Below are positions 4,119 through 54,477 of a DNA stretch of 64,000 nucleotides, piece after piece. Position 1 is the first letter of the stretch. Each line of letters begins with the position of its first letter. The stretch lies in NCBI GenBank assembly GCA_949879765.1, contig CATLBQ010000007.1:2266-66265 (forward strand), in the 5' to 3' direction. Both the position numbers and the translations under genes were made by a program. The stretch is from an uncultured Bacilli bacterium. GTDB taxonomy: Bacteria; Bacillota_I; Bacilli_A; ML615J-28; CAG-313. Under the pieces are notes generated by a model, which saw only the letters and a list, made by a program, of their open reading frames with translations, did no database searches and was not told the origin of the DNA.

Positions 4119-4137
4119 CCCCCCCATTTTTTACCAT

Positions 4138-4845: not shown

Positions 4846-5736
4846 TCATTTCATTAAGTTATCAACCAATAAAATATTAAAAGGTTTGTATTCTCCACTA
4901 AAATCACATTTTACTATTCGATTATCAAAATAATGTAATATTTTCTCTTTATACAAGTCCTCAAATATAGCTTTAATATCTAATTCTTTTGATAAAAAAT
5001 CATTATAATCTTTTATTATCAACAAATATGAATTTCTTTTACTACTGGTAAAATCAAACCGGTGATCCCACGCAATTATATAAAAAGAATGATGCTTAAC
5101 ATCTTTATAATAATGGTCGACTGAATATTTTTTTTCTAACTCATGAATATAATCTTTCCATTTTTTACATTTTTTTCCATCAATTTCTATACAAAAAGCT
5201 TCTTTAAATTTATTTTTATATTCTTCCAATTCATTAAAATGAATATGATATATTTTGTTTTCAAATAAACAAGGATCAACTTTTAACTCTATTTGTTTAA
5301 TTTTAGGACCTTCATACAAATTCATTAAAGCCTCTTCAATATCATTACCTAAAAAGTAAAGGACTATATCAAGTCCCGCATATATTTTTCCAGACAATGA
5401 CATCATAAATATATAATGAAAACTATTGCTACCAATCATAACTAGTTTTTCATCTATTGTATTTTCGTATACTTTTTCTCTTCCTTTTTCTATTTCATTA
5501 ATTTTAATACAATCCAAAGTTATAATATCAATTGGATTCTTTTCATATTTTTCTAAATACTTTACAGGGTATTTAAGTTGATGACCATCAAATATTTCTA
5601 AATACTCTAATAATTTATCAAATACTGGCAAATCCTTACTCTTTAAATAAGCAAGCACATTATTAATTTCTTGTTTTTTTTCAATATTAAATCCTTGATT
5701 TTTTAAATATTGCATTAATTTATAAGATATTCTCAT
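4846..5736 (-). CDS. Immunity protein: SUKH-3 domain fused to a barstar-like domain
   Basis: N-half LEYLEIFDG..MIGSNSFHYIFMMSLSGKIYAG..YFLGNDIEEALMNL is SUKH-3-like. C-half IEIDGKKCKKWKDYIHELEKKY..LLIIKDYNDFLS is barstar-like. The ATG at 5736 lies 5 nt after the toxin-tip stop. Confidence 0.7.
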   Translation of the reverse strand: MRISYKLMQYLKNQGFNIEKKQEINNVLAYLKSKDLPVFDKLLEYLEIFDGHQLKYPVKYLEKYEKNPIDIITLDCIKINEIEKGREKVYENTIDEKLVMIGSNSFHYIFMMSLSGKIYAGLDIVLYFLGNDIEEALMNLYEGPKIKQIELKVDPCLFENKIYHIHFNELEEYKNKFKEAFCIEIDGKKCKKWKDYIHELEKKYSVDHYYKDVKHHSFYIIAWDHRFDFTSSKRNSYLLIIKDYNDFLSKELDIKAIFEDLYKEKILHYFDNRIVKCDFSGEYKPFNILLVDNLMK

Positions 5737-5741
5737 TTTAA

Positions 5742-6307
5742 TTATCCACTTACAACGAGTAGAACTCCTTTCATAGTTATTTGACAATTTCTACACATTA
5801 CAGCCATTGTAAAATTTGAAACACGCACAGTAGTAACAACTAAATCTTCCATCTTCGCACCACTATTGAGCGCTGAATTTACTGCATTAAATTCAGCACA
5901 ATTTGCAACTTTTCATATGAGTATATGGTTCCAATAGTTCATTGATATTATTGGCAATGTGACTAGACTCTCCACGATATACTTTTCCAGTTGTCTTGTC
6001 AACAGCAGCAGAAACCATCGTAGGTCTATTTTTTTCATTGATTGTCATTCCTTAACGTGCTTAGTGCAGTTTGCTTAGAAATGTTCGCAAATTTTATTCT
6101 ATTTGCTTTTTGAATTGTATGCGAAATACGAAGACAAGTACTTAATATTGCAAAAAATCCAGTAATAGCAGCAACTCTAATATTAAATATACCTACAATA
6201 ATGATTACTGCAACCATCATTAAACCTATCGCCAATCTTTTCCCATGTGACTTGCCAAAACTTTTTCCACTTAATTTATTCATCAGCAGCATACGTGATT
6301 TCTTCAA
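5742..6307 (-). pseudogene. Frameshifted orphan toxin tip: hydrophobic pre-toxin linker plus YwqJ-like deaminase
   Basis: Joining three frames gives ..AIGLMMVAVIIIVG..//MTINEKNRPTMVSAAVDKTTGKVYRGES..//KVANCAEFNAVNSALNSGAKMEDL..MCRNCQITMKGVLLVVSG*, with CAE and CxxC Zn-deaminase motifs. Confidence 0.75.
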
Positions 6308-30800: not shown

Positions 30801-33800
30801 CTGCCCAGAAATTTAAATCCAAAATCAATTGATTTTTTTCATTAAAGAGTGAGAATGATTCATCTTGTAATACGTCACTAATTTCATCAATGAAAGATAA
30901 TAAGATATCTTTTTCACCAGTATAATCTAACGCAACCAATTGATTGTATACATCACCATCTTTTTCAATATCTAAAAGACCAGAGACTTTTAGTAATAAA
31001 CGAATGATTCTACCTTCAAAACCTTGGATGATTTTTGAATCAAAAATACCAGACACAATCGTCTTCATAGCATCTACTTGTTCTAAAGCAAGTGCATGTA
31101 ATCCATCATTTTTGATATCTAATACATTTAAATCCACAACGGCTTTTACAACATCAACCAATTGAATAACTTCATTCACCAATTCTTCGGAAGAAATATG
31201 ATCTAAAATATCTCGAATCAAAGCACTGTCATCTATTGTTTCTAATTTTTCAATTTGTGGTACTAAATATTTGTCTAAAACATTTGGCAATATCGCCAAT
31301 ACCACTTGAGATTCAACTATATTTTCAAGTGCTTCTACTACATAATCTAAGAAAGTATCATTTTCTAATAATTGTTCAATATTCTGACTCAAACTAGACA
31401 AATCATAGATATCAAATCCTTCTACATCAATCAATTTTGCATAGGTATCAATCAAACTCAATAAAACAAGCGTTTCATGATTCCAATCTACATTTTGGAA
31501 AGCTTCTTCTTCTAAAGCTTCAATCCAACCAAATTGTCTCATTGAAGCAAGAACAAGTTTGTTTTTCAATTGATTGTCACCAAGAAGATGTAATCCCAAT
31601 GCTTTTTCTACAATCAATTTTAAATTTGCAATTGCTTGATCACTTGTAAGATCTAGATTTTGGTAAACAAAAGGATTTAAATTTTCTAATACTTTGATTT
31701 CATTGGTTGCTTTAGCAATATCCAAGATATCTTTTAAATCGTCTTTCCATTCTTCACTTGTCATACCACTAACATCTACAATGTCATCAAATTCATTTGC
31801 TTTTTGATCAATCCATTCATCTAAGAATTTTTGCATTGTTGGTGTACCTGCAAGTTGATACAATTGTAAGTCAACCAATTGACTAGCAAAAGTATTTGCA
31901 GATTCAAATTTATCCGTATGCTCTAAAATATCTTGAACAATATCTACCCAATTTTTAGTTTGGAATTCTTCAACAGATTCAAAACCAAATGTAAGGAATG
32001 TTTCATACAAACTAACCAATTGTCCAAATTCTTTTTGCCATTCTACTTTGCTGAAGTCCACATTGTCTAAAGCATGTTTGGTAATATCTTGAACTTTCTC
32101 TATAGAAACGCCAACTGCTACAGCAATATTAACAATATCATGCATCTTTTTCGTTGAAAATAATTTGTTTACTACACTACGTAAAATAGTTGCATCTAAA
32201 TGAAGATAATCTGCTGTTACTCGGTCTGGAAATTCTTTGAAATTAGCCAAATTAGCAGCTTCTCTAACAGCACTGACAATTTGCTTCAAATCGTCTGTAG
32301 TCAGTTCCCCTTTTAACTTTTCAACAGCTTCTAATTGGTTGGCATCTTCTAATAATTTTCGAATTTGCTCTTGACGAAGTGCATAGTCAAGTCCTACTGG
32401 AACTACTACTTTGTCCGCAATTTGAAGAGATAGAATGTGGTGTACCATCACCAATACATCGTCCAAACGGTTCGAATCATTGAGAATATCGTGCAAAATA
32501 CTATTGTAATTTTCTTTTACATTTTCAATAGTTTTCAAATCAAATTTTTGTACTTCTTCGTAAATGTTCACTATATCATGGAATTCTTGTTTCCAATTGA
32601 TGCCTTTAAAATCAATTTGATCTAATGCATCGCCCACGATTTCTTTGACTTGAGCTTGATTAAGCCCTATCGCAAGACCAATTTTTACAACATCATATAA
32701 ACTTGAAGTTTGAGTTTCTTTATCTAATGTTGAAAAAATTTGATCAACAACAGCATGCAAAATAGCTACATCTAAATTCAAATAATCCACTTCAATCGTT
32801 GGATAATTTGAAAAATCAATTAATGGTAATGCCGTTTTGATGGCAGCTACAACTGCTTTTAAGTCTTCAATCGTCATATCAAAACGAAGACTACTAAATG
32901 CATTAAATTGATCTGCATCTTCTAAAAGTTTTTTGAATCCTTCGATATTAGAAGCATATTCAATTCCAGAAGGTACTGCAATTTGTTTGAGTAATTCTAC
33001 TTCTAATGCTTGATTGATGATTTCAAACAATGTTTCTGTTTTACCTGCATTGTTTAAAATATCTTTGATGAATGCATTGGTATCTAACCCTTCAAACGTG
33101 GTAACACCAAAGGTTTGGAAATTAGCATACATATCCACAAGGATATTCAATTCCTTTTTCCAATCGATGTCTTCAATACCACTGACAAATTGATAACCTA
33201 TCCATTCTACAACCTTTTCATGAGATAACCCTGTATTGATTGCAATTGGAAGAATTTTTTGAATCAATTCTGTTTTTGCCAGTACATTCACTACATTTCT
33301 CAGTTGTTCTGCATTCATTGTCAAATAGTTGAATTGATCAAGTGGGAAAATGCCCAATTGGTATGCTTCTACAACAGCATCCAAAATAGCATCTAAATCT
33401 TTGCCCCAGTTGATATAACGCAGACTCAAATAATCTGAGTCTTGATACGCATTGTTAAGTGCTTCTTGAATAACTGGTATTTCATATCCATATTCAATCG
33501 CTACAGGCATACCTTCAACCAATAACTTTGATTTTTTCAATGCATTTAAGGCATTTTGCAATTCTTCAATTGACCATTTTTCGGGATTGGATTTGCCATT
33601 TAATGCATTTGCAGCTTTGATAAAAGTGATTAATTCTTCACTTACACTAATGTTTTGGTTTTTTGTTTCAATTCTTAGCAAATCATCAAACAAACTTTCA
33701 CTAAATGATTTACCAAAGAAATAACTTGATGCATTTGCAAATTTACCTAAACCACTTTCGTCATAGGCTTTTGCAAAGTCAAAAATCATTTCAATGGGAT

Positions 33801-34578
33801 CATCTGTGGAAGTTGTTTGTTGTTCTTTACCATTCACCAAATCGGAAATCATTCCTCTGGTTTCTGGAGTAGCTGTGTTAAGAACTGTACAAATCCCAGA
33901 AAGTGGCACACAAACCAAAATAACTACAAAGACACCTTTCAATGATCCAGCAAGAGCACCCCACCAGCGTTTTTTGCCAGCAGGCTTTTTGACCAACTCA
34001 TTGGCTTCTTTTGTTACTACAGCTTCTTCGACACTTTCTTCGCCAGTAGAAATTAAAACTTGTTCCTTTTCAGAAACAGCGGTTTCACTGGCTGCTTGTT
34101 CTATAGGTTTTTTCTGCTTTGCTGCACGGATAATCAACTCAATCATATGTGTAATCAAACGAATGATTGGAGAAATGATTAATACAACTACTGTGCCAGC
34201 AAGTAATCCGACTGCGCGGAAGATGGTACCAACCACACTATAGAAAAGCGTGTACGTTTCCTTTCCTTCAACTAGTAAATCCTCTCCATTAGGAACAACG
34301 CTTCTAGCATATACTAAAATCGCATCCCAAATAGTAGAGATAGAATCATCTTGGACCCCTAGTATTTCAGCAACTCGTTGACCGGCCTTTACATTGAGTA
34401 AAGTGGCTTGATCACCAAATACTAGCCAAGATAAAACTAGTAAAACTATGAAAACGGCTACGCACCTAAGTTCTCTTTTTAGTCCACCTAAAAAGCCCCA
34501 AAGTGCGAAAAGTAATACTATTACTAGCAATCCCAAACCAGCAAATAGTAAGATTTGATTAAAATCCATCATTTTCAC
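21835..34578 (-). CDS. Giant (4247 aa) membrane-anchored alpha-helical repeat protein with a CvpA-like N-terminal TM domain
   Basis: Uninterrupted 12.7 kb ORF; N-terminal TM helices (WGFLGGLKREL; RWWGALAGSLKG); about 20 recurrences of a [IV]DWxxE motif alternating with LTxEELxxD; acidic. Confidence 0.85.
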   Translation of the reverse strand: MKMMDFNQILLFAGLGLLVIVLLFALWGFLGGLKRELRCVAVFIVLLVLSWLVFGDQATLLNVKAGQRVAEILGVQDDSISTIWDAILVYARSVVPNGEDLLVEGKETYTLFYSVVGTIFRAVGLLAGTVVVLIISPIIRLITHMIELIIRAAKQKKPIEQAASETAVSEKEQVLISTGEESVEEAVVTKEANELVKKPAGKKRWWGALAGSLKGVFVVILVCVPLSGICTVLNTATPETRGMISDLVNGKEQQTTSTDDPIEMIFDFAKAYDESGLGKFANASSYFFGKSFSESLFDDLLRIETKNQNISVSEELITFIKAANALNGKSNPEKWSIEELQNALNALKKSKLLVEGMPVAIEYGYEIPVIQEALNNAYQDSDYLSLRYINWGKDLDAILDAVVEAYQLGIFPLDQFNYLTMNAEQLRNVVNVLAKTELIQKILPIAINTGLSHEKVVEWIGYQFVSGIEDIDWKKELNILVDMYANFQTFGVTTFEGLDTNAFIKDILNNAGKTETLFEIINQALEVELLKQIAVPSGIEYASNIEGFKKLLEDADQFNAFSSLRFDMTIEDLKAVVAAIKTALPLIDFSNYPTIEVDYLNLDVAILHAVVDQIFSTLDKETQTSSLYDVVKIGLAIGLNQAQVKEIVGDALDQIDFKGINWKQEFHDIVNIYEEVQKFDLKTIENVKENYNSILHDILNDSNRLDDVLVMVHHILSLQIADKVVVPVGLDYALRQEQIRKLLEDANQLEAVEKLKGELTTDDLKQIVSAVREAANLANFKEFPDRVTADYLHLDATILRSVVNKLFSTKKMHDIVNIAVAVGVSIEKVQDITKHALDNVDFSKVEWQKEFGQLVSLYETFLTFGFESVEEFQTKNWVDIVQDILEHTDKFESANTFASQLVDLQLYQLAGTPTMQKFLDEWIDQKANEFDDIVDVSGMTSEEWKDDLKDILDIAKATNEIKVLENLNPFVYQNLDLTSDQAIANLKLIVEKALGLHLLGDNQLKNKLVLASMRQFGWIEALEEEAFQNVDWNHETLVLLSLIDTYAKLIDVEGFDIYDLSSLSQNIEQLLENDTFLDYVVEALENIVESQVVLAILPNVLDKYLVPQIEKLETIDDSALIRDILDHISSEELVNEVIQLVDVVKAVVDLNVLDIKNDGLHALALEQVDAMKTIVSGIFDSKIIQGFEGRIIRLLLKVSGLLDIEKDGDVYNQLVALDYTGEKDILLSFIDEISDVLQDESFSLFNEKNQLILDLNFWAENENAQTLVDGVKVLFGTYEDANASGSKLIEVLLPTIYDTYVEAKDIIPEDFKSIVEELDLTNASGQTLVHDLRCLVYVLDQLVAVDAQSFLTKGGNIAINDQLSDALCNIIDALHDMELFHGHEEATLSWGVNYIASLLKIELGAINEDFSNVDWQGQKAVYKNIITDIVALFKENQVTDVNAAIEIIQGILKGNHEYDTYVTDANATSILNIIDKIADVEVIDAIIPLGIKCGVKFLGEQGIQLDYIYELTNEQLVDDFRSLVTIDHKLVEDAHIVDYYLDREKGEMALPDESVVLSLVDDIYALNMVQCANGRLAEVVYDKLIALYAQDQVFELSKDDFDFRNIDWASEKEIIKALLALGYDFFETANVQTMYALTNFFKDKWYTYPTVLTDGVGYVATEALRTLQQSQLVGNIIEKGFKYIVDLANRSGKVPFSIDYLSQVSKEALMEDLGTLANILDEAISFGAMEYLRTKNIQMVDLNQAANIVEQMYDLHVVQANESELLFNAINYGLKLINDKWNDTLYVTDSQVKTIDVKQEFTLLAQIIRNAQRVLDKQDLRSITDIQAFISGDTYKKEAFYDVEMGEILSDMVVQVVDSQILQLVLVDVIDLVATQVQKVDLSFLKGTLTKEEWVEDIRTAAKLIVPAIQAELIQLVFGLDVKELPLHMDIYSEMVLVLGDLHLLNHKWADVATLATNQVLGALKVEDRVETSLFEGIRFKDEVSSLVQAIQAAQQSFENAAIVKVKDAIDIMQYKAYKDAKYANEAVVNPLLDALDALLDTQTIQAVLPTAARVGRDQLTKNNATKDFVFILDDLNQLELVQDAKLLVAYLKDAVTVGALEYVTTQDIQNLNVEKIAEMVEGLYDFHMIQKHAPNLMYELFQLATKKVVISFDVTLADFETIQYQNEFASLAEAIVAVRPLMDSLEYTSLKDVMKIVNNKDYQYKAFYKGATLDALVEFAREVLDLETVAFLLPDVFNYGVDQVKGVDVSFLKGAFTKEELVQDARQILLAVAPMDRAEIIDVIFGTKIEDISLHFNDYEEIVAAASELHILNKKWADIAALATNKILEALKSSDTVEASLFEGIVFKDEAPQLIQALEEFKAAYVASNVLTVKDILGIFKNKTYQDEATLNRNVVNAFVNGVDQAVEVKTLQVLLPTFAMHMAKFTGQKGFAMEYLFIDATTEELVADVHTLASISRELLDYGMLEFMLFGGAIDVSTADVINAAINKMQTLHCMNHNEQNLLTALFDKLGIDTTAMALSTIDYQQTWAEINEVVRIAYRIFNAKQADTLSQIKALFTKEFAQELWKVNEQTDTYLDAMIDLAKLCSESELVEAIAFPISEKYVKENNKLFDLIGIHQIYNHPQEFTADLSALATTIESIRTLDLYQIVKEDAPYPFDRSDVVETVVNHLFGLYYFNNDGRLDAVIKAVDGLVSQDLSDITADGVNLKADAPKIIEMYSYFYNITRNKYWTINSNADVKNNNFNMQLLGQASFYENALDFILTYMDTTIYEKTGPAILLVSLPLMKKFAPQYYEALDLEHLTLDVVEHDIPYLEDIVFAMKEMDLTTTIENKAYFTEQMREMVTRIFDDVVALDMLNGHMEAVLTLVAKDFINGKKIAGFEIAEDAFKFETTVFALDKEDMKLVMNELYDLFAREHINNIADAKAYIQQLMNKAGIKAFLSQEANWIMMENIMDALTRMTLVQENGLAMMNNIITPYIEQYSLTLGHASDVSMYTNEEFMEDLALATSVVKALHQLDIVSILNNQNIDYANVDAVEAILSSLADMNYFKYHMDQIIDFVDRRSILPFSIQALHASEFDFAGDMNVFAQMYKDLVPYLTSKYNPFPTYQDIRAFMNSGFNITRDMLSGTNQYRYQFVDAYDKFVQTTTYQLLLPELKEFVETKVPEKYRGVVAAVSFDGLTFEQIKEDALLSATLVRTLVDFGIIDVVKNKDIPFTGTITSTLNAQTTEMTRTEALNSIVDYLEALHCLADRSEVLLEALETLGVITNEIDLSGVNWDYEFAYLRTLITEGIDVFASCGWHTVKEVYAYIKSLNRTNIQSEIKAMARLADTDSLAVVMETLDLSDAFNQLFKPLYNRFVYHRLPVSLGELGNLDTYTVADLDEDMARVARITRAVAQMDAVPGSIKDNVSKDECIIPAQTIIEEVFALNFVDQKKQELVRFANTFVGEIDMSDLDLTGVDLASDGKVLSAYAKEILTIVAQTGLLKVKLQHVGNTELMSAVVALYQGALDTNVFKAISSWGYEKYVLPKLENANLAHRLGIDENSIEPLCQEFGVVLDALLDMGAFSNNGIDFTNTENTDRLFGVFTNVFDLSDKTMTPINKLKKNMYVLGKVDLVYPEGSLKVELKAIYRAMMKALDIITRYGDQLKTEKYELFDDQTFQNEVTALVNQAFESKVLEQISTPIADGIVRIFTKDIVEITILEHMDSQTFVNTFLPDVFNIVEKANVLGLFKKTIDYKNAQGIIDLADIAVHSTSFAPYLDQLMQYACYVVGIDIRDVDFSSVNWEMEYQGLASALREVENVLPTIDIHDKSTMKNNAFLDAVANATPHMENSTILPLVARQFAEKLSQKLFGDRFNQYINHLYQTSYTDDKLMSDYARISDILKAVVDLGYFEGGLDYNYLDPILTLAEEFFALEYTKGLEATLLHAVVKRVDALKAYTFDFDAVQDWTAEQVVLMDALKELVSLSKLMDINNVSSSALEDKAVQAQFVKVVDAMSQSIVGQQFLPQFYMDKVEPMLGNEDYRDIVDFTDPGFTPDKWASEFEKLFVAYSKLQEVGYGTSKEIALQDAKDIMVLMFGTREHQEEGLYTVTSRPQLWLTRFYNRGFFNFPNNAKVSIDTTDDRDWNDEAYQIMDVLDQMMAFETTSGSTFDYNDVYACQDETQLKEFFTTINECVAVRTAVMCIVFNVIEENTTVQQQLEASGLLDTEFQAEYDSYVNGTYVYNEAYWTDAKVQQFASIIARANAL

Positions 34579-34813: not shown

Positions 34814-37800
34814 TTATAATATCTCTAAATAAGTTAAAACAGCAGTAATCACAGCACTTTCTTCTACTTGAGTAGCTAGTTCTGGATAATCTTGTATATT
34901 AAATTCTTCTTGTTGGCTTATGGCTTCTTGGTACGTTGTGAGTGCAGCTGTTAGTGTAGCGGCTTCTTTTGTCCAATCGACATGTTCATCTATTTCTAAC
35001 CCTTCATTTCCAACAAGTTGTGATAGCATATCTTGAGTTAAAGTTGTGCTATTTTCTATTTGATTTAAGGCAGAAAAAGCAGTAGACAAACGCTGGATGT
35101 TTTCATCCGTAATGTGATGCTTATCGGTATCTTGAATTGCTTGAGCAACATCAATCATATGTCCTATGGTTTTAGCATACATCTGTAGCGATTCTGGGTG
35201 CGTAAAATCATACTTGGGTTGTTGCGTGATATCATCTATTGGCAAAATATGCATTCCCTTTTCACCTAAAGCGTCATTTAAAAGTTGCCCTACTACTTTA
35301 GATGCAAGAATAGATGTACTCGATTGCCTCATGATTTGTTCAACTGCACCACCTTGAATAGCACTGGTTTGGAATTGACCTGTTAAGGCATCTTTTAAGA
35401 ATATATTTTTACTACTTTCTAACACCCTCACTAACACCCCTAGCTCTTGAACCATGGTGTGTTGCATCATTGTTTCTTTTTCTTGTGGTGTAAGCGTCAC
35501 TGTAAATCCAGTTTGTTGTAATAAACAATCCAAAAGTGTAAATGTATATGGATTCATGATATGAGAAACATACATATCATCAAAGAAACCACCCACTTTT
35601 TGAGCGATATCTAACGCATTGTCTAACGTAGAGATATCTTGTTCTAGGAAAGACAAATCTGTACTCAAATCAATGATATCAAATAACACCTGTTTGAGCA
35701 AAGGTTGTTCTTCATTCCAATCGGTTGGTGTACTTGGTGCTACATAACTTATATATTGATTCATACCACTTAAATCTAAGAATAGTTGTACCAATTGTTG
35801 TTCATTCTTTTGTAACAACTGTAAACTGAGTAAACAATCTAACATTTGCTCGACTTGAGCTTTGACTTTTTCATCGGTTAAATCCAGTTGATATGCCTGA
35901 TTTGCATCAAAATGGTCTTTCAGCCGAATCTCTTGAGCAATTCGATATGCGGTAAAGAACGATTCCACATCAGTTGAAAAATCTTGTTGGAGATACTCCA
36001 CTTGAATCAAATCGACGATGGGCGCAAATTCTGAATGGCGTGTAGCTTGTTGTAACATTTGAATGACTGCTGGCAAATAATATGTTGTAGAAAGGGTAGA
36101 ACGATTCAAGTCTTCTACTATGGTTTGAATGATGCTTGGCGTATGCTCATTTTCTAATAATTTGGATAAATCATTTCGGTCAAAAGGACAAGTGAGTACC
36201 AATTCATATGCATCTATACAAATGTCCAATAGAATTTCGGTTTCTTTTGACCAGTCTACTTCTTCTTTGATAAAGGCATCTATATCGATGCCATATTCAC
36301 TCACATCAAAACTTTTTTGAATTTGATTGGCCATCTTCTCTAGAATAGATGGGTAATTATCCTTTAATAAATAAACAGACAAAATATGGCGTTTGGCTTG
36401 TTGTAATTGAGTTTTTAATTCCTCAGTAAAGATATATGTACCTTCTACTTTTCGGATATAATCCAATACTTTGGTTTCCTTTAACAATTGGTATGCCTCA
36501 ACTATTTCTTTTACATCCTTTGCTAAATAGGTTTGAATATATATCTCATTGATCCAATCTGTTACAAATGCATAGTCAGTCTCTCGCAAATAATCCTGTA
36601 AATAAAAATAAGATACTTTCGTAAAACATTCTTCAAACAATTCAACGGCCATTGCCTTAGTTAACGCATCACTAAAGTCATTTGCAAATGTATCACTTTC
36701 TAATAGCTGTTCTGTTTGAAAATCATCTAAATTGATATGTTGAAGCAGTTGATAAACAGATTTTAAAAACGGTTCTGTTTCTGAAAAATTTTGGTTAATA
36801 TCTAATTGTGATAAACGATCAAAATCTAAATTCCATTTTTGAATATCTAACTTTTCTTGTTCAGTTTGTAAATAACCAATGATATATGGATAAAAGGCTT
36901 CAATGACTCTACTATCTCCTAAATATGTACAAAGTAAGTGAATATCTTCTTCTGTGAGTAAATCTAACTTTTCGTTGTTTGAAATATCTTGTGATGCACC
37001 TTCTACAATCTGTAAAATGCGTGGTAGCATAGGTGATAGTGCATCTATTTCTGTGACAAAATTAATAGTTACACCATTGGTTTTGATTTGAAATACATTG
37101 CCCAAACGCTTGGCGGCTAAACCAAAAGAACCATTTTCTTTTTTCCCTAATGTCTTGGTTGTCTTTAATATAAAAGATGAAGACACAATTTCATTAAAAT
37201 TCTCTGATTGTTCTATATAACTTTCATCTTGTTTTGCTACTTCTTCTAATGCTTTTTGTGTCACTTCTACAGCACCATATAACGGCAAAACAAAAATATA
37301 AAACATAAATATAAATCCGACAAAAGCAATACCTGCACCCAGTAGTCGGTCTAACAAGAACCGGTGTTTTTTCTTTCTAATTCCAGGAAGGACTAAAAAG
37401 AAAATAAATCGCAATAATGGCGCTCCAATCAATAGCCATACAATAGCAAAAGCAAGACAAATGACAAAACGACCTACCGAAATGGCCATATCTTCAATCA
37501 ATATATCCATTTTGGCTTCCTTTAATTTATTCATATCCCCTTCAAAACATTGATCGGCAACACCTTCTTCAATCCATGTATATAGTGAGGTTTCTTCTTC
37601 TGTAAAAATGTGATTTTCCATATAGATGACTTTTTGGGCTGCTCTTCCCGCAAAAATAAAACAAAGTATCAGTGGAACAATTTTAATAGTTACAATAATT
37701 CCTGTTCGAAGCGTCCCTTTGGTAAAACCTTTTAATAGTGCGATTAAACCAATCAATAATACAAAAATATCAATTCCTAATACGATTATTCTGAATGTCT

Positions 37801-37819
37801 CATTACTCATCATTGACAT
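34814..37819 (-). CDS. Membrane-anchored helical repeat protein with CvpA-like N-terminus; shorter paralog of the 4247 aa protein
   Basis: LKGFTKG and LLDRLLGAGIAFVG TM motifs; VDWSKE, TDWNEE and VDWTKE repeats. Confidence 0.8.
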   Translation of the reverse strand: MSMMSNETFRIIVLGIDIFVLLIGLIALLKGFTKGTLRTGIIVTIKIVPLILCFIFAGRAAQKVIYMENHIFTEEETSLYTWIEEGVADQCFEGDMNKLKEAKMDILIEDMAISVGRFVICLAFAIVWLLIGAPLLRFIFFLVLPGIRKKKHRFLLDRLLGAGIAFVGFIFMFYIFVLPLYGAVEVTQKALEEVAKQDESYIEQSENFNEIVSSSFILKTTKTLGKKENGSFGLAAKRLGNVFQIKTNGVTINFVTEIDALSPMLPRILQIVEGASQDISNNEKLDLLTEEDIHLLCTYLGDSRVIEAFYPYIIGYLQTEQEKLDIQKWNLDFDRLSQLDINQNFSETEPFLKSVYQLLQHINLDDFQTEQLLESDTFANDFSDALTKAMAVELFEECFTKVSYFYLQDYLRETDYAFVTDWINEIYIQTYLAKDVKEIVEAYQLLKETKVLDYIRKVEGTYIFTEELKTQLQQAKRHILSVYLLKDNYPSILEKMANQIQKSFDVSEYGIDIDAFIKEEVDWSKETEILLDICIDAYELVLTCPFDRNDLSKLLENEHTPSIIQTIVEDLNRSTLSTTYYLPAVIQMLQQATRHSEFAPIVDLIQVEYLQQDFSTDVESFFTAYRIAQEIRLKDHFDANQAYQLDLTDEKVKAQVEQMLDCLLSLQLLQKNEQQLVQLFLDLSGMNQYISYVAPSTPTDWNEEQPLLKQVLFDIIDLSTDLSFLEQDISTLDNALDIAQKVGGFFDDMYVSHIMNPYTFTLLDCLLQQTGFTVTLTPQEKETMMQHTMVQELGVLVRVLESSKNIFLKDALTGQFQTSAIQGGAVEQIMRQSSTSILASKVVGQLLNDALGEKGMHILPIDDITQQPKYDFTHPESLQMYAKTIGHMIDVAQAIQDTDKHHITDENIQRLSTAFSALNQIENSTTLTQDMLSQLVGNEGLEIDEHVDWTKEAATLTAALTTYQEAISQQEEFNIQDYPELATQVEESAVITAVLTYLEIL

Positions 37820-42406: not shown

Positions 42407-44134
42407 CTAAAAAACTGCATAAGCAAGTGCTAATAAATCGCCTTCTTCACTCACTCTATCAGAAAACATAGTTATTCGTATAACATATGTCGTAGTCTCT
42501 TCCACAAGATATGAAAATAATTCTACATTAGAATCAGAGCATTGTGAAGAAAGAATAATTTGACCATCAGGTAAAAATAACCTTAAGTCATAATCCCCCG
42601 TAACTGTTCCATTCTTTTTTCCATTCGCTTTTGCTAACCAAGCAAGTGACGCCCGAAGTGTTTGACCTTTTTCCAAATCAATACGATGTTCTATTACAAG
42701 TGCATCACCACTATTTACTGGATTTACCGTAGAGCATGCCATATAAGCATTATACACATTTTTAATTGCATTCCCCAAATGCAATTTACCTGCCCCATAA
42801 CCTGATGCTAGAGGCTGAAATGTTTGCGGTGCGCCAAAATTCCCCAATTGTTGCGCATTCGCACACAATATAGCAGTTACTAATTGAGGGTAACATTTCA
42901 AATATGGGCGTTTTTCCATAAGAAGCGCAATAGAACCACTCGTAATCGCACAAGAAAAACTTGTACCATAATAGTTTTTATTAAAACCATCTACATAAAC
43001 AGTTGTTCCTCTTGCTAGTAATGTTGGCTTCTCTGGTGCTCCATTTTTATATAAATAATTGGAAAAATAAGCATAATTTGTACCTTCTTCGTTGTGTGCA
43101 CCAACACTAATTACATTGTATCCTAAAGCAAGTGTATTGATATTGCCACCTTCATTTCCCGCCGCTACCACAATGGTAACTCGGTAGGTATATACAATAT
43201 AATCTAAGTATGCCGATTTTGCATCATAATATCCATCTGATACAGCATCGCCACAGGATAAATTAATGATATCTGCACCTTTACTTAGTAACCAGTCTAT
43301 TTCATTACTAGGACTACCATATAAATATGAAGTTAAAATGGTAGCATTTGGTGCCATTCCTCCATGACCTGCTATAATAGCTGCCACTGCGGTCGTGTGT
43401 TCAACAACGGTATTCGCATGCAAAAATTGTTTGTGTGTAACAACATTGGTTCCTACTAAAGAAGCATGATCTTTATCCGCTATACCTAGTTCTAGTACCC
43501 CCACTTTTACACCATCACCAGTTAGCTCTCTACTTTCAAATAATTGCCCTGCCCCCATACCATAAAAAGCATTACACACTTTTTGCTCTATACTCATTTC
43601 ATTAGTGCGTCTTACATATACGGTTTTAACAAAAGCTGTATTCGATAATTTAGATAATAGTTTTTGTTTGCATTGTTCAAATGTTTCTATCTCAAAGATA
43701 TATTCAATATACGGCATATAATGCGATATATATTTATCCATATATCCTTCTATTTCTAACAATTCATCTAATACCTTATTTTCTTCTAAATGGTATTGTC
43801 TAATAGCTTCTCTTGCATATCCACGAATCTCATTGACCTCTCTATTCGTCATATCTTCTGTGACTTCAATGGGATTGATGGATGCCTCAATATTTTGCAA
43901 TACGTTTTTGTTATGTTGGTTGTAATCTAATTCAATTTCTAAAATGATGGCATCATTTGTGGATTCTTCTTCAGTAGTGTTATTATCACTAGTTAAACTT
44001 TCTGATGTTTTTGCTTCTGTTTTATACTTTAGGTCATCTCGATATATAATCTTTTGATTATCTATACCATAAGTAATTAAAAAAGATCCCAAAATAATGA
44101 CAATAGCTACCCCCATTACTGCTATTTTTTTCAT
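42407..44134 (-). CDS. Secreted S8 subtilisin-like serine protease (Glu variant) with a C-terminal beta domain
   Basis: N-terminal signal/TM; VGVLELG, HTTAVAAIIAG, AAGN, GTSFS. Confidence 0.85.
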   Translation of the reverse strand: MKKIAVMGVAIVIILGSFLITYGIDNQKIIYRDDLKYKTEAKTSESLTSDNNTTEEESTNDAIILEIELDYNQHNKNVLQNIEASINPIEVTEDMTNREVNEIRGYAREAIRQYHLEENKVLDELLEIEGYMDKYISHYMPYIEYIFEIETFEQCKQKLLSKLSNTAFVKTVYVRRTNEMSIEQKVCNAFYGMGAGQLFESRELTGDGVKVGVLELGIADKDHASLVGTNVVTHKQFLHANTVVEHTTAVAAIIAGHGGMAPNATILTSYLYGSPSNEIDWLLSKGADIINLSCGDAVSDGYYDAKSAYLDYIVYTYRVTIVVAAGNEGGNINTLALGYNVISVGAHNEEGTNYAYFSNYLYKNGAPEKPTLLARGTTVYVDGFNKNYYGTSFSCAITSGSIALLMEKRPYLKCYPQLVTAILCANAQQLGNFGAPQTFQPLASGYGAGKLHLGNAIKNVYNAYMACSTVNPVNSGDALVIEHRIDLEKGQTLRASLAWLAKANGKKNGTVTGDYDLRLFLPDGQIILSSQCSDSNVELFSYLVEETTTYVIRITMFSDRVSEEGDLLALAYAVF

Positions 44135-44277: not shown

Positions 44278-44304
44278 AAAAAAAGGGATACAATTATCCC
44301 TTTT
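44278..44304 (-). terminator. Terminator after the sigma/anti-sigma pair
   Basis: aaaagggata-caat-tatccctttt. Confidence 0.7.
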
Positions 44305-44893
44305 AATCCATTATAGTATATTCTTTAGATAGTCCGTCTACATTAATTATAAACTGCAATGCTTCTCCTTTTTCTATAGATACTCTTGACAAGTGGCCAC
44401 AAGATGTCTCGGATATACTGACTGCTTGAGCATTTATTAAAATGGTAATAGGCTCATTTCTTGTATGTTCAAAATGAACAATATAAAAATAATCAGAAAT
44501 TTGCTCTTTTACATCTACACCTTTATATATATACATTGATACATTATCATTGATACGTATGTTACATTGGTACTGTCTATTTACATTTTGATTGATAGAA
44601 ATCATATAATCATAATATTCATCTGTTAAATATATATCACCCATTTCTTTATTTGTGAGATGTAACTGCCTATATACTAAACCAATTACACCAAATAAAA
44701 GAACGATAGACATAATCGCTGATAATCTAAAAGACAATTTATATTGTTTTAGTGCTTTGTTATTTTTTGCACATTGCTCTTTCAAGTCTATATTGAAATA
44801 CTCTGTTTTCTCCATTACATCAGAAGCCTTTAACTTAGGCTGGTATGTTTTTTCAAAATCTTCTTTAAGCATCATTTTAATTGTTTTTTTCAT
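44303..44893 (-). CDS. Putative single-TM anti-sigma factor
   Basis: ATGA overlap with the ECF gene; cytoplasmic N-terminus, one TM (LSAIMSIVLLFGVIGLVY), extracytoplasmic C-terminal domain. Confidence 0.6.
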   Translation of the reverse strand: MKKTIKMMLKEDFEKTYQPKLKASDVMEKTEYFNIDLKEQCAKNNKALKQYKLSFRLSAIMSIVLLFGVIGLVYRQLHLTNKEMGDIYLTDEYYDYMISINQNVNRQYQCNIRINDNVSMYIYKGVDVKEQISDYFYIVHFEHTRNEPITILINAQAVSISETSCGHLSRVSIEKGEALQFIINVDGLSKEYTIMD

Positions 44894-45420
44894 TTCTCTG
44901 TTCCCCCCTTAATGAATCTTTTTACTTTTCCATGAGAATTATAGTAAATGTGTTTTACTTTACTAATTGTCATATTGCTTTCTTCCGCAATATCTGAAAA
45001 TTTCATTCTTAACCCATCTTTCATATATAAAATACGATATGCTTCTTCCCCAATATATCGTTCTACCTCTGATAACATAATGAGATTATCTTGATTAGTT
45101 ATGCAATGTGCACTTTCTACATGTTGATTATTTATAGATAGAACATGACTTCTTGATTCTTTTACCTTTATTATGTCTTTTAAATGGTTATTAGCAATGG
45201 TAAACATCCAGGTTTCAAAACTTGCCTTTTTTTCATCATATGTATGAATGTGATCTAATACTTTAATAAATATTTCTTGCACAGCGTCTTCTGCATCTTC
45301 TACGTTGTGTGTATATTTTAAAGCATAGTAGAATAATATTTTGTTATACTTTTCAAATAATTGTTCAAAAGCAACTTCATCTTTTTCAATGATTCCTTTT
45401 ATAATTTTTTTATCCATCAT
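44890..45420 (-). CDS. ECF-family RNA polymerase sigma factor
   Basis: AFEQLFEKY..DAEDAVQEIFIK..FETWMFTIANN; region 4 FSDIAEESNMTISKVK. Confidence 0.9.
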   Translation of the reverse strand: MMDKKIIKGIIEKDEVAFEQLFEKYNKILFYYALKYTHNVEDAEDAVQEIFIKVLDHIHTYDEKKASFETWMFTIANNHLKDIIKVKESRSHVLSINNQHVESAHCITNQDNLIMLSEVERYIGEEAYRILYMKDGLRMKFSDIAEESNMTISKVKHIYYNSHGKVKRFIKGGTEK

Positions 45421-45518: not shown

Positions 45519-45550
45519 AAAAACATGCCCGGAATGAACCAGGCATAATA
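45519..45550 (-). terminator. Terminator after tRNA-Gly
   Basis: ATGCCTGG-TTCATT-CCGGGCAT-GTTTTT. Confidence 0.7.
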
Positions 45551-45557
45551 TCTCTTT

Positions 45558-45632
45558 TGGAGCAGGTAACCGGAATCGAACCGGCATCTTCGCCATGGCA
45601 AGGCGGTATAATAGCCGTTATACTATACCTGC
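45558..45632 (-). tRNA. tRNA-Gly(GCC)
   Basis: GCAGGTA/TACCTGC acceptor stem, anticodon loop TTGCCAT, GGTTCGATTCC T-arm, U73 discriminator, encoded CCA; 75 nt. Confidence 0.95.
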
Positions 45633-45689: not shown

Positions 45690-46439
45690 TTATTCTTCGT
45701 CTGATTCAACTAGATCTAAACCAACAACATTGTGATATACATCTTGAACATCATCATCTTCTTCAAGTAAATCAAGAAGACGTTGTAATTGTTCTTTTTC
45801 CTTATCTGTTGCAAGTTCTACTGGATTAAGTGGAAGCCAAGCGACAGTATCTTCTAAAAATTCTTTTCCTTCTGGAAGTACTTCTCTTAAAGCTTCTCTA
45901 ATTTTACCATATTCTGTACTAGGTGCAGTAATTGTGACTACATCTTCGTCAGAAGAAATATCTTCTACATCACAATCTGCTAAAAGTAATGTTTCAAGTA
46001 CTTCTTCTTCACCCATAAAATCAATGGAGAAAATGGCTGTATTTTTAAACATATGTGTTACACTACCACTTCCCGCAATCTTACCACCACAACGTTGCAA
46101 TGCCACTTTTACTGCTGTTTGGGTACGATTGTGATTATCTGTTAAACATTCAATGACAAACATTGAATTTCCAGGTCCAAAGCCTTCTAATGTCATTGGA
46201 TCATAAGATTCTTGATTGGCTCCTTTGGCCTTATCAATTGCTCTTTTGATAACATCCGCAGTGACTTGTTCTCTTTTTGCTTTTTCGATTTCCTTCTTTA
46301 AGTTTTGGTTTAAATCTGGATCAGGCACACCGGATTTCGCAGCCATATATATGATACGGCTCCATTTGTTATTTAATTTTGATTTTGCTGCGGCCGTTTT
46401 AGCCATTGATGCAGCACGAACTTCATGTGCTCTACCCAT
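45690..46439 (-). CDS. yebC: YebC/PmpR family protein
   Basis: MGRAHEVR, PDPDLN, EGFGPG..IECLTDNHNRT, LEEDDDVQDVYHN. Confidence 0.93.
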   Translation of the reverse strand: MGRAHEVRAASMAKTAAAKSKLNNKWSRIIYMAAKSGVPDPDLNQNLKKEIEKAKREQVTADVIKRAIDKAKGANQESYDPMTLEGFGPGNSMFVIECLTDNHNRTQTAVKVALQRCGGKIAGSGSVTHMFKNTAIFSIDFMGEEEVLETLLLADCDVEDISSDEDVVTITAPSTEYGKIREALREVLPEGKEFLEDTVAWLPLNPVELATDKEKEQLQRLLDLLEEDDDVQDVYHNVVGLDLVESDEE

Positions 46440-46550
46440 AAATAATCTCCTTTACTGATTGATTCGACTTATTATACCACTATTGGTAAAAATTTGAAAG
46501 TAATTTGAAAATTTTTATATCCTATGGTATCACCTAGATCAATAGATTTC

Positions 46551-47732
46551 TTATTGAAAGGTGACCACAAGTCCATTATTTTCAATATACGTTTCTATGG
46601 TTTTGATGCGTGATCGATTTTCTTCTGATAGCTCAGTTAATTTTAAAATATTGTGTTTGGAACAACGCACCTCAATATTTTTTCGGTTCAATTGATGATC
46701 TACAATGGCACGAAGTCCTTTATAAAGCGCCTTATACATAGCAGTCAATAACTCCTGTGGTGTATTGGCATAAGAACCGCCACTATTACTATAATCACTA
46801 TTCTCAATACTATATTTCCATGCAAAAGTATCACTATCTTTGATGGCTATAGGTTGAATGGATAATACGACTGTTGCATTTGTTCCCATAGAAAGATCTA
46901 CTTTTGTATCTACTAGTTTCGATAACACCCGTTTTAACTTACGATATTCACCAATAGATATCTCATTGACATATTCAACTAAATTGTTATTGGGATTGGC
47001 TACATCTAATACCATGTAGTTTTTCTTCACTTGATTATTAGGATCAACACCTAGTTTTTGATAAATATCTTTTGATACTTCTATTTTTTTGCCTTTCATC
47101 AATTCATCTAAAGCCTTGATAAAAGCATGAAGATAGTCTTCATAACGATTGTCTTTAAAGTAGGTATTGAGTGCATAATACAAAATAATTTCTATGATAT
47201 ATCCTGAAATATGAATATGTTGCTCTTCCTTATAATACTGAATGATTTTTACAGCATTTCTAAAATAAGTATAGTCTCGATTGGCTAATTCTGTAAATTG
47301 AATTTGTAGTTCGTCTGTCGTTGCAAGATAAGCTTCTTGCGTATAACGAATCAAAAGGTGAATGATATAATTTCTCCATCGAATGGTGATACTATTTCTA
47401 GAAACATTTCTTGTAATATCACTTAATTTTTGCACTTCCTTTGCGTAAATAAAGGCATTGACAATTTCATTGCATATGGCTTCATTTTCTAATGCAAATG
47501 GAGTCTCACCGGTTGGTTTTACAATTACCATGATGTCTAATTCCTCAGCATCATTAAGTAAGGTTCCTTTCGCCCATGATCCTGCTTTTTTAATCTCTTG
47601 AATATGGGTATGTGTTGTCACATTTTTTTCAATGATTGTACGAATTTGTAATAATTTTTCATTGAGAGCATCTCTTTCATCTGCTAAGATTTCTACATCG
47701 GTGACTAATCTTCTAAATTCTTTTTCGGTCAT
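46551..47732 (-). CDS. SMODS/CD-NTase/OAS-like nucleotidyltransferase-fold protein (degenerate) with a C-terminal RNase H-like domain
   Basis: AGSWAKGTLL..EELDIMV, ISGYIIEII, VLDVANPNNNL; C-terminal AMYKALYKGLRAI..NIEVRCS. Confidence 0.65.
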   Translation of the reverse strand: MTEKEFRRLVTDVEILADERDALNEKLLQIRTIIEKNVTTHTHIQEIKKAGSWAKGTLLNDAEELDIMVIVKPTGETPFALENEAICNEIVNAFIYAKEVQKLSDITRNVSRNSITIRWRNYIIHLLIRYTQEAYLATTDELQIQFTELANRDYTYFRNAVKIIQYYKEEQHIHISGYIIEIILYYALNTYFKDNRYEDYLHAFIKALDELMKGKKIEVSKDIYQKLGVDPNNQVKKNYMVLDVANPNNNLVEYVNEISIGEYRKLKRVLSKLVDTKVDLSMGTNATVVLSIQPIAIKDSDTFAWKYSIENSDYSNSGGSYANTPQELLTAMYKALYKGLRAIVDHQLNRKNIEVRCSKHNILKLTELSEENRSRIKTIETYIENNGLVVTFQ

Positions 47733-48541
47733 AAATCCTCCTGATTGATGGGATATTGATATTCTTTGCGCTCTATATAATAAACTAGATGATCAAAACC
47801 ACAAGATTGAATCAAACGCATATAATGGGGAAATGAAGATTCATATCGCTCTACGCTATGCGCATCACTCGATAAAGTCAAACGCTTTCCACCTACTTGT
47901 TGATAGAGGCGTAATAAGTAAAGCGTATGTTGATCATCATCAATGGCTTCTTGAACCTTTGTATTGATTTCTAGTGCTTTACCATAGGCAATCAAGTTTT
48001 GATACACTTGTTTGATTTGGTCTTCATAGGTAGATATGTTTAATGTTTTATCCATCAAGTACGCTGTTTTAAAAGCATAATCAATATGTGATAATACATT
48101 ATAATTGGTGAAATGAGAAGTTGCCTCAATCATTTCATCAAAATAAGCCGTTAACAAGGTATGAATACCATATTGTTTGAAATACTTTGGCCAGTAAAAG
48201 TCAGCATCATCATTTTCATGGATGCTTAGATTGACTACATCATACGATTCACTATTGATTTGGGCATGGATTTGATCTATATGACCTTTTCGATACCCTA
48301 CTTCAATACCCAATAAAAAAGAAATCTGGGGATATTGCAATCGCAATTGTTGTTGTTCTTGTTTTAAACGAGCAAAATCTACGGTCCAGTCCACTTGTCC
48401 TTCCACCATATCTAAATCGAAATGTTCTGTTGTTACCACATAGGAACACCCTAGTTCAATGGCTTTTTGAACATAGGATTCTAACTGTTCAGTTGAATCC
48501 ACCGAGTACATTGAATGAACGTGTTGATCATGTAATTTCAT
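47729..48541 (-). CDS. PHP-family phosphatase (HisJ/HisK histidinol-phosphatase-like)
   Basis: DQHVHSMYSVDS, TTEH, GIEVG, SIH, SHIDY, LEINT, SSDAH. Confidence 0.88.
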   Translation of the reverse strand: MKLHDQHVHSMYSVDSTEQLESYVQKAIELGCSYVVTTEHFDLDMVEGQVDWTVDFARLKQEQQQLRLQYPQISFLLGIEVGYRKGHIDQIHAQINSESYDVVNLSIHENDDADFYWPKYFKQYGIHTLLTAYFDEMIEATSHFTNYNVLSHIDYAFKTAYLMDKTLNISTYEDQIKQVYQNLIAYGKALEINTKVQEAIDDDQHTLYLLRLYQQVGGKRLTLSSDAHSVERYESSFPHYMRLIQSCGFDHLVYYIERKEYQYPINQEDL

Positions 48542-48662
48542 ATCTATCGCCTCGAATCAGTTCATTATACCATATTTTGTAAATAAAGTAAAGTTACAAG
48601 TGATGAAGCATTTTATCAATTTTTCTGATTTTGATTTATTTAACCGAAATAATCTTGATTTA

Positions 48663-49106
48663 CTAGATACACTCTTCTAAAATAAATCCTTTTACCTTAT
48701 GAATAATGACACCATAATCATCGATGACTTCAATAATTTTGTCTTTCAATCCTGTGGCAAGTTCCTTATTTTCTTCTAAGAATTTCAGTGCACTTATAAG
48801 ACCCATATTTGTCGATTTGATAGCATTGATACAAATCGTAAATGCATCATGAAACACCTTCATCTTTTCTTTATAAACCCCCATAATCCCTGCTGCGGTG
48901 AGGCTACTTGTTGGCTCTTCATTGAATTCTTGAATCAATGAACGAATCCCCTCTTCATGTTTTTTAAACATTTCCATAATTTCAACAATTAAATGACTCA
49001 GTTTTTCTTCTTTTAATCTTTGGGCTTCATCATAATAAATACGATAAATGCTATTGCCCATATGTACATAAGATAAAAATTTATTTAATTCATTTGTTTT
49101 TTCCAT
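48663..49106 (-). CDS. Ferritin-like four-helix protein (DUF2383-like)
   Basis: ELNKFLSYVHMG..Y..KKHEE..NMG helical pattern; RBS GAGGAT. Confidence 0.55.
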   Translation of the reverse strand: MEKTNELNKFLSYVHMGNSIYRIYYDEAQRLKEEKLSHLIVEIMEMFKKHEEGIRSLIQEFNEEPTSSLTAAGIMGVYKEKMKVFHDAFTICINAIKSTNMGLISALKFLEENKELATGLKDKIIEVIDDYGVIIHKVKGFILEECI

Positions 49107-54156: not shown

Positions 54157-54477
54157 CTATAGCTGATTGTATTTGGTGCTTTTTCCATAGCACTTTTCCA
54201 CAGGATATTTGGCTTCATTTTTAGCCATTTTATGATTCACGATGGTATCCATATCAAAATGGTATTTTTCACATAAGTAGGTCGCATAAACCAGCACATC
54301 AGCTAACTCATCTTGTAATGCTTCGATATCGGTTGGTTCATCTTGCCATAAAAAGAGCTCTAAGACTTCTGCAGCTTCTATCGATAACCCTTTGGCCAAA
54401 TTGGCACCTGTATGAAATTGTTCCCAGTTTCTATCTTTGGTAAATTGTTCAATCCGCTTGATGGTTTCTATCTTCAT
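54157..54477 (-). CDS. MazG-like nucleotide pyrophosphohydrolase
   Basis: RNWEQFH..NLA..IEAAE..DELADV..KMAKNEAKYP. Confidence 0.9.
   Translation of the reverse strand: MKIETIKRIEQFTKDRNWEQFHTGANLAKGLSIEAAEVLELFLWQDEPTDIEALQDELADVLVYATYLCEKYHFDMDTIVNHKMAKNEAKYPVEKCYGKSTKYNQL

Follow-up and report, generated by a model that had tools for sequence, protein, structure and literature searches.

To our knowledge, bacterial nucleotidyltransferases (NTases) of the CD-NTase family have been met almost exclusively as active enzymes that synthesise signals within mobile defence operons. Proteins of the same fold that have lost catalysis and act through binding, such as OASL, NF45/NF90 and Mab21, are known from eukaryotes. 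NTases also occur together with phosphoesterases: bacterial PolX pairs a Pol-beta NTase with a PHP domain, and the bacterial CCA-adding enzyme likewise combines the two activities. Here we describe a gene in a 64,000-nucleotide stretch of an uncultured Bacilli genome (contig CATLBQ010000007.1, positions 2,266 to 66,265; hereafter, the window), whose 393-aa product, NT-RNH (NT for short), joins a predicted CD-NTase/OAS-like domain to a predicted RNase H-like domain. NT-RNH probably works by binding and not by catalysis, because its catalytic residues are lost and yet the gene is under strong selection at the same chromosomal spot. Related loci are numbered L001 to L023 and homologous proteins carry P0nnn labels.

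The AlphaFold2 model of NT, built on 38 homologues, reached a mean pLDDT of 88.8; residues 276-283 form a linker of low confidence. Residues 1-275 were modelled as a bilobed fold of the CD-NTase/OAS/Pol-beta superfamily that includes a GS loop and a C-lobe of the OAS type. In a Foldseek search against the PDB, the model matched CdnC (6u7b, E 3.4e-11; 6p80, E 4.4e-10), the OAS-like domain of OASL (4xq7, E 1.5e-9), OAS1 (4rwn, E 1.3e-8), NF90/NF45 (4at8, E 2.7e-8), CdnB (7ljo, E 2.9e-8), Cid1 (4fhy, E 1.0e-7), CdnE (6e0k, E 1.3e-7) and the archaeal CCA-adding enzyme (3ova, E 7.6e-7), and the Foldseek probability was 1.00 for all of these proteins. An initial annotation of the window, made from the letters alone, had proposed an NTase/OAS-like fold, and the matches to CdnC, CdnE, OAS and the CCA-adding enzyme bear this out. 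In profile searches, the NCBIfam model CBASS_cyclase_a matched NT with an E-value of 7.9e-14 and 51.5 bits, its curated cut-off being 200, and 13 PADLOC cyclase models matched it, the best with an E-value of 6.9e-11. The Pfam model SMODS (PF18144) reached 25.0 bits, below its cut-off of 26.5, and the only Pfam model above its cut-off was DZF_N (27.7 bits, cut-off 27.1, aa 24-133). These profile matches to CD-NTases are weak but consistent, and the similarity lies far above chance.

Among the described systems, the CD-NTases of cyclic oligonucleotide-based antiphage signalling systems (CBASS; CdnC, CdnD, CdnB and CdnE) share with NT the GS loop, the second aspartate and the OAS-type C-lobe motifs, and the two CdnC structures are its best structural matches (TM-score normalised to the target, 0.64-0.67). 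NT differs from them in that it lacks the third aspartate, that about half of its family has also lost the first acid, and that it carries an extra RNase H-like domain; moreover, it has no effector gene, and it is chromosomally fixed and vertically inherited, outside defence islands. OASL and OAS1 have the fold and the C-lobe motifs in common with NT, and the OAS2 profile alignment lines up F-x-E-L...K-x-(W/Y) and S-x-Y-x-L-E-L-L; unlike OASL, NT is bacterial, has no ubiquitin-like domains and ends in an RNase H-like tail. The DZF proteins NF45/NF90 have an inactive NTase fold that binds nucleotides (ATP, UTP and CTP complexes, PDB 4at8, 4at9 and 4atb). They are, however, eukaryotic, and the Pfam search found no DZF_C match in NT at E-values up to 1; the likeness of NT to DZF is probably a shared superfamily signal.

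We examined the catalytic positions in an alignment of 146 sequences of 250-450 aa, which comprised the window protein and all homology-search matches of that length, to the exclusion of shorter fragments and of two giant proteins. The window protein reads G51 and S52 in the GS loop, E64 and D66 in the first acidic motif, and H125 in place of the third catalytic acid. Position 51 was glycine in 129 of the 146 sequences, and position 52 was serine in 96 and alanine in 30. At position 64 an acid was found in 75 sequences (E in 59, D in 16), the others having S, N, K, T, I and other residues, while position 66 was acidic in 132 (D in 123, E in 9). Position 125 was asparagine in 91 sequences, followed by K (14), H (12), D (11) and S (5), and only 13 sequences were acidic there. 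Taken together, 63 sequences kept only the first two acids, 59 only the second, 10 all three, and 14 had other combinations; the complete set was thus absent from 136 of the 146 sequences, and none of the 10 full-triad sequences fell within the clade of the window protein. The initial annotation had read the ELD of NT as an altered DxD motif. This part did not hold, since outgroup CD-NTases and intact relatives read E, D and D at the three catalytic positions, and E-x-D is therefore the ordinary state. Its second observation, that the strand of the third aspartate (IHLLIR) is altered, agrees with H125 in the window and N at this position in most of the family.

The positions of the nucleotide-binding scaffold are kept in most of the family: K or R at position 165 was found in 134 of the 146 sequences, S176 in 117, D243 in 132 and N250 in 141; in the window protein residue 165 is Q, and K162 lies one turn before it. 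The nucleotide/triphosphate-binding scaffold has thus been retained and the metal-binding acids lost, and we read NT as a binding module because the same combination is seen in NF45/NF90 and OASL. An active NTase with a non-canonical metal site, composed of E64 and D66 together with H125 or N125 and making a nucleotide product that the neighbouring PHP enzyme hydrolyses or processes, would also agree with the acids left in the window protein, with the metal-binding capacity of histidine, and with the kept GS loop and triphosphate positions; both first-motif acids are present in 63 of the 146 sequences, and NTases paired with phosphoesterases are a recurrent arrangement. We consider it improbable, as the first acid is gone in 71 and the third in 133 of the 146 sequences, the short relatives lose even D66, and the residues that replace the acids vary (N, K, H, S, T, Y), unlike a conserved alternative ligand.

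The C-terminal 110 residues, modelled alone with AlphaFold2 on 18 sequences, gave a pLDDT of 94.1 and a pTM of 0.87, with the topology beta-beta-beta-alpha-beta-alpha-beta. The sole Foldseek match at E <= 1e-3 was an RNase HI (4e19, chain 4e19_B; E 6.2e-4, TMq 0.63); further matches were 3aly, 3u3g/4h8k (4h8k_A, TMq 0.68) and 3hst, and almost all of the 50 matches listed were RNase H, RNase H domains of reverse transcriptases, or RuvC. Look-alikes of the domain by ESM Atlas features (0.85-0.89) were RNase H clusters, which we take as leads only. By sequence, the domain matched no PDB chain (best E-value, 0.23) and showed no Pfam similarity to RNase H, so that its assignment to type-1 RNase H is one of predicted fold only. 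The domain was present in 132 of the 146 sequences. We placed the RNase H acid positions from the secondary structure of the model and not by residue-level superposition. At the end of beta-1 (position 291) we found N in 79 sequences, D in 30 and H in 13, with an acid in 32 of the 132; at the start of helix A (positions 328-336) no position was acidic in more than 4 sequences, and at the end of beta-4 (positions 357 and 358) acids occurred in 0 and 10 sequences, respectively. The domain thus lacks conserved nuclease carboxylates (DEDD, which RNase H carries on beta-1, helix A, beta-4 and the C-terminal helix), and the RNase H-like tail without acidic residues that the initial annotation had described is supported on both counts. 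RNase HI and the tail share topology, the best matches being archaeal and bacterial RNase HI and retroviral RNase H, but the tail has neither sequence similarity to RNase HI nor the DEDD acids, and instead conserves W305, G318, G319, K334, K338, D345, N349, E371, N372 and R375. It is basic (median pI 8.84), in contrast to the acidic NTase part (5.66). Search matches to P0171 and P0174 (6096 aa and 723 aa) had raised the idea that the tail might be a repeat of giant proteins. This was rejected, as the domain profile had no significant match to either of them or to the 4247-aa open reading frame (ORF) of the window. In a viral fold library no protein joined an NTase fold to an RNase H-like domain.

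A word-based search recovered 110 clusters with the full architecture, at 39-99% identity and nearly all of 393-400 aa, and an exhaustive search of 1.84 billion representatives gave 72 matches at E <= 1e-3, which points to a small but coherent family. Among 38 sequences 48 columns were invariant; they include the N-terminal M-T-E-K-x-F-R-x-L-V...E (with E3, K4 and R7), a helix-turn around residues 148-159 (with E148, N151, D153, Y154 and N159), and nine of the tail residues conserved in place of the nuclease acids (all of those named above except D345). We then compared the window gene with two congeneric loci, L001 and L002, by the ratio of nonsynonymous to synonymous substitution rates (dN/dS). 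It was 0.036 and 0.044 for NT, 0.071 and 0.070 for PHP, and approximately 0 and 0.018 for yebC, the gene 3' of NT; within NT, the NTase part had a value of 0.038 and the tail one of 0.024 when compared with L001, so both domains are constrained. NT-RNH is therefore under strong purifying selection and not decaying. That the gene is a functionless remnant of a decaying CBASS operon would account for the lost catalytic acids and the absence of an effector nearby, but we regard it as hardly credible: dN/dS is about 0.04, 110 clusters with identities as low as 39% have an unbroken ORF, and 48 columns are invariant in 38 sequences.

Eight distant relatives (P0130, P0131, P0140, P0142, P0144, P0179, P0180 and P0181; 418-435 aa, 23-28% identity) retain G-S, E-x-D and the third aspartate together with a homologous C-terminal domain. 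In a maximum-likelihood tree (55 rows, with five ordinary CD-NTases of 276-295 aa as the root), the tail-bearing proteins formed one clade (support 100/100), and the intact-triad forms made two basal groups whose relative branching order was unsettled. The 39 degenerate rows, including the window protein, formed one clade (96/98), inside which six rows, all short (278-284 aa) and without the tail, made a nested group (100/100). Because the intact fused relatives branch basally, NT-RNH descends from a catalytically intact NTase that was already fused to its C-terminal domain. By the same tree, a single loss of catalysis took place at the base of the window's clade and a separate one in a group of three rows, and some lines later lost the tail. 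The initial annotation had called NT a domesticated pseudo-enzyme, and this agrees with the acid loss across the family, the purifying selection, the fixed synteny, the absence of effectors and the basal position of the intact fused relatives; its alternative, a mere decaying CBASS copy, is contradicted by the selection and by the intact ORFs. Of the homologues with full triads beside Cap genes that it had named as a refutation, the eight relatives provide the full triads.

A scan of genome contigs found NT in 23 loci, all in gut Bacilli metagenome-assembled genomes (MAGs) with labels such as Anaeroplasma, Acholeplasmatales, Mollicutes and 'Staphylococcus sp. CAG:324'. Two of the contigs, L001 and L017, are titled as Prevotella sp. 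and Muribaculaceae MAGs and are probably mis-binned. On the minus strand of the window, PHP is followed by NT, yebC, tRNA-Gly and a hairpin (Table 1). We found yebC directly 3' of NT in 20 of the 23 loci, two others ending just past NT, and typA 5' of NT in 14. The block TypA ... PHP - NT - YebC is thus conserved as a gene order, but how it is divided into transcription units varies from clade to clade. The tree of the proteins has deep, well-resolved branches, and NT holds its position across its clades, as vertical descent predicts. The chromosome around the gene is ordinary, with genes for aspartase, DegV, TetR, an ECF sigma factor, a subtilase, TypA, an LD-carboxypeptidase, a MazG-like protein, Trk, SHMT and others.

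No Cap effector or other defence gene was detected by PADLOC among 21 ORFs, about 12 kb on each side (NT, PHP, the ORF upstream and 18 flanking ones), and a Pfam scan of 35 ORFs of the window found no effector family, as the initial annotation had claimed for the surroundings of the gene. The 23 related loci were surveyed by tblastn with the 14 neighbour genes of the window only, and by Pfam for five proteins of L020, L022 and L023. NT therefore has neither the complete catalytic set, nor an adjacent effector, nor a score above the family cut-off that would mark a CBASS cyclase. By tblastn, neither the window protein nor the intact-triad P0131 matched any of 50,697 phage or 72,556 plasmid records. 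Some PHP domains do occur in defence systems, among them Ophion and ppl, according to a preprint on an unrelated PHP defence system (bioRxiv 10.1101/2025.09.30.679545). With the CD-NTase descent of NT, this might be taken to favour a so far unrecognised anti-phage system, in which NT-RNH senses phage nucleic acid and PHP is the effector. Such a system seems highly improbable to us, given the fixed position among housekeeping genes in 20 of the 23 loci, the well-resolved deep tree, the absence of copies in the phage and plasmid records, and flanks without genes of any defence kind; PADLOC gave no match for PHP either, and a sensor of this type would be unable to signal by synthesis.

The PHP neighbour of NT in the window matched Pfam PHP (E 7.8e-24) and TIGR01856 (104.4 bits, above the cut-off of 90.2), the best equivalog models staying below their cut-offs, and its closest solved relative is the histidinol-phosphate phosphatase of Lactococcus lactis (4gc3, E 2.5e-25). 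Residues H7, H9, H40, E80, H108, H152, D226 and H228, which we take to be metal ligands, were invariant in 17 of 17 sequences. This makes the neighbour, a member of the HisJ family, very likely an active phosphoesterase. Pfam detected no his genes in the window. PHP lies directly 5' of NT in 20 of the 23 loci, and in the 18 loci where the distance was taken, its stop codon and the NT start are -4 to +13 nt apart in 12; one further locus has 84 nt between them, and five have 114-147 nt. The 84-nt case is L012 (2030-2845), in which the PHP frame stops early (243 aa) and its remainder can be seen by eye in another frame within the gap, that is, a frameshift or an assembly error. In the window the NT start codon overlaps the PHP stop codon by 4 nt (ATGA, 47729-47732), and a motif scan found no terminator-like site between the two genes. 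Thus PHP and NT are predicted to be translationally coupled in one bicistronic unit in the window's clade. The overlap, and the position 5' of yebC and tRNA-Gly, had already been recorded in the initial annotation and are confirmed by the ORF and tRNA coordinates, as are all of its motifs in the translation: GSWAKGT (51-57), ELD (64-66), IHLLIR (124-129), VKIIQYY (161-167), SGYIIE (176-181), DVANPNNN (243-250), AWKYSI (304-309), AMYKALYKGL (331-340) and IEVRCS (353-358).

As the best explanation of these results, with a probability of about 40%, we propose that NT-RNH is a domesticated pseudoenzyme that combines a CD-NTase fold keeping the nucleotide scaffold, without the metal acids, with an RNase H fold without the nuclease acids. 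It would now be a vertically inherited chromosomal gene of a low-GC gut Bacilli clade (Anaeroplasma, Acholeplasmatales and similar MAGs) and would act by binding instead of catalysis: a nucleotide triphosphate would sit in the NTase cleft, and the ligand of the basic RNase H-like domain would be a nucleic acid or a phosphorylated compound. In the window's clade it would be made together with the intact HisJ-type PHP protein from the bicistronic unit and serve as its regulatory or targeting subunit. PHP is the most likely partner there because both proteins are made from one coupled message. The two folds, the lost residues, the selection, the synteny and the descent from intact relatives are results of the analysis; the ligand binding, the partnership and the substrate are what we infer. 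The proposed unit resembles PolX in that an NTase-fold protein is paired with a PHP phosphoesterase, but it differs in that NT and PHP are separate genes, the NTase is OAS-like and dead, and PHP is of the small-molecule HisJ type.

Several observations weigh against PHP as the partner. In L013-L017, PHP starts a few nt after the typA stop codon and the PHP-NT spacer holds a promoter-like TGATATAAT, and in L013-L015 a GC hairpin with a T-run directly follows PHP (by eye); PHP and NT therefore form separate units there. L021 and L022 have a short NT before yebC without PHP, while L023 has PHP and a short NT. In L020 (4567-6404), a full-length degenerate NT (377 aa) has neither PHP nor yebC nearby, and its ORF shares 1 nt with that of a PnuC-like transporter of nicotinamide mononucleotide (PF04973, E 1.4e-27). 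No PHP-NT fusion was found among homologues of 216-688 aa. Conservation is highest in the N-terminal segment MTEKEFRKLV..E, and the forms without PHP have it too, which argues for a partner other than PHP. Finally, synteny within a vertically inherited block is, by itself, no proof of function. That NT works with the PHP enzyme, as first proposed, thus has its support in position, in the adjacency and the short distances; the link is weaker than initially suggested, and PHP is a putative partner.

The main rival to this partnership is the same pseudoenzyme acting independently of PHP, as an RNA- or ribosome-associated binding protein in translation or another core process. Three reports describe YebC-family proteins as translation factors that relieve polyproline stalling (PMC11990639, PMC12234827 and PMC11381339). 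The gene yebC stands 3' of NT in 20 of the 23 loci, including short forms without PHP, the TypA ... NT - YebC block is conserved, and the invariant N-terminal helix persists with or without PHP, which in L013-L017 goes with typA; the adjacency of PHP would then be inherited gene order. Against such a role, the NTase part is acidic, L020 has neither neighbour, and yebC has its own -10 site, TGnTATAAT, in 19 of the 19 loci examined, so that NT and yebC are not an obligate operon. An NT-yebC operon, which we had also considered, is weakened by the same site. We hold a PHP-independent role to be somewhat less likely than the partnership, and likelier than the other alternatives. In most loci, a CAAATTACTTT-like element lies about 15-20 nt 5' of the yebC TGnTATAAT (by eye, in window positions 46440-46550 and the 19 loci) and could be a -35 region or an operator; the NT-yebC spacer of the window is 111 nt long.

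A chromosomally fixed, dead bacterial protein of CD-NTase/OAS fold with a pseudo-RNase H domain appears to be an undescribed architecture. Neither the combination of NTase and pseudo-RNase H nor its pairing with PHP was described in the full-text literature searched, which covers few subscription journals. A further step, that a cGAS/OAS-type immune synthase with an RNase H-like sensor has become a dead, core housekeeping nucleotide or RNA sensor controlling PHP or the YebC/TypA translation machinery, is in our view quite doubtful; if true, bacteria would have their own equivalent of OASL or NF45/NF90. Independently of this step, an entire bacterial family (about 110 clusters) has followed the trajectory of the eukaryotic dead members: its catalytic acids are lost, purifying selection is strong, its chromosomal position among translation-related genes is fixed, and intact fused cousins survive. 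It thus offers a tractable case of an immune enzyme domesticated into a non-catalytic cellular role.

Table 1. Features of the window around NT-RNH and elsewhere (aa, amino acids; all on the minus strand).
Feature	Position	Strand	Details	Basis
NT-RNH gene	46551-47732	-	393 aa; stop codon 46551-46553	110 homologous protein clusters
CD-NTase/OAS-like nucleotidyltransferase fold (predicted)	46908-47732	-	aa 1-275	AlphaFold2 model, Foldseek, profile matches, residue tallies
RNase H-like C-terminal domain (predicted)	46554-46883	-	aa 284-393	AlphaFold2 model, Foldseek, acid tally
HisJ-family PHP phosphoesterase	47729-48541	-	270 aa	Pfam PHP, TIGR01856, PDB 4gc3
Promoter-like site 5' of PHP	48564-48592	-	TTTACT, 17 nt, TATAAT with upstream TG	Motif scan
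YebC/TACO1-family gene	45690-46439	-	Directly 3' of NT	Pfam and NCBIfam matches
Promoter-like site of yebC	46471-46498	-	Within the NT-yebC spacer	Motif scan
tRNA-Gly (GCC)	45558-45632	-		Rfam
Terminator-like hairpin	45524-45547	-	After tRNA-Gly	
ORF 5' of PHP	48663-49106	-	147 aa	DUF2383, sub-threshold
ECF-type sigma factor	44890-45420	-		
ORF next to the sigma factor	44303-44893	-	196 aa	No family
S8 subtilase	42407-44134	-		
ORF	34814-37819	-	1001 aa	No Pfam family at E up to 1e-5
Giant ORF	21835-34578	-	4247 aa	No Pfam family at E up to 1e-5
SUKH-3 immunity-like protein	4846-5787	-		
Protein with C-terminal minimal Pol-beta nucleotidyltransferase domain	3309-4127	-	272 aa	PF18765
ORF	676-3291	-	871 aa	No family
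MazG-like pyrophosphohydrolase	54157-54477	-		

The promoter-like sites of the window were, in total, no more numerous than in shuffled controls; an extended -10 was found at a similar place upstream of PHP in 8 of 18 related loci. The Rfam scan of the window returned tRNA and no other RNA family. Between typA and PHP the block is variable, and the 147-aa ORF with sub-threshold similarity to DUF2383 (ferritin-like) is present there in L001-L003 and L009 only.

Other parts of the window gave a few minor observations. The ECF-type sigma factor overlaps by 4 nt the 196-aa ORF, which is possibly its anti-sigma factor; the S8 subtilase comes after this pair, and the trio is kept in L001 and L002. 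The 4247-aa and 1001-aa ORFs are probably surface proteins. The PF18765 protein adjoins the 871-aa ORF near the SUKH-3 immunity-like protein, and this region could represent a small island for conflict or toxin immunity that has nothing to do with NT-RNH. Finally, the ORF of the MazG-like protein overlaps by about 37 nt the start of the LD-carboxypeptidase ORF as listed, and the carboxypeptidase probably begins later than at this upstream GTG.

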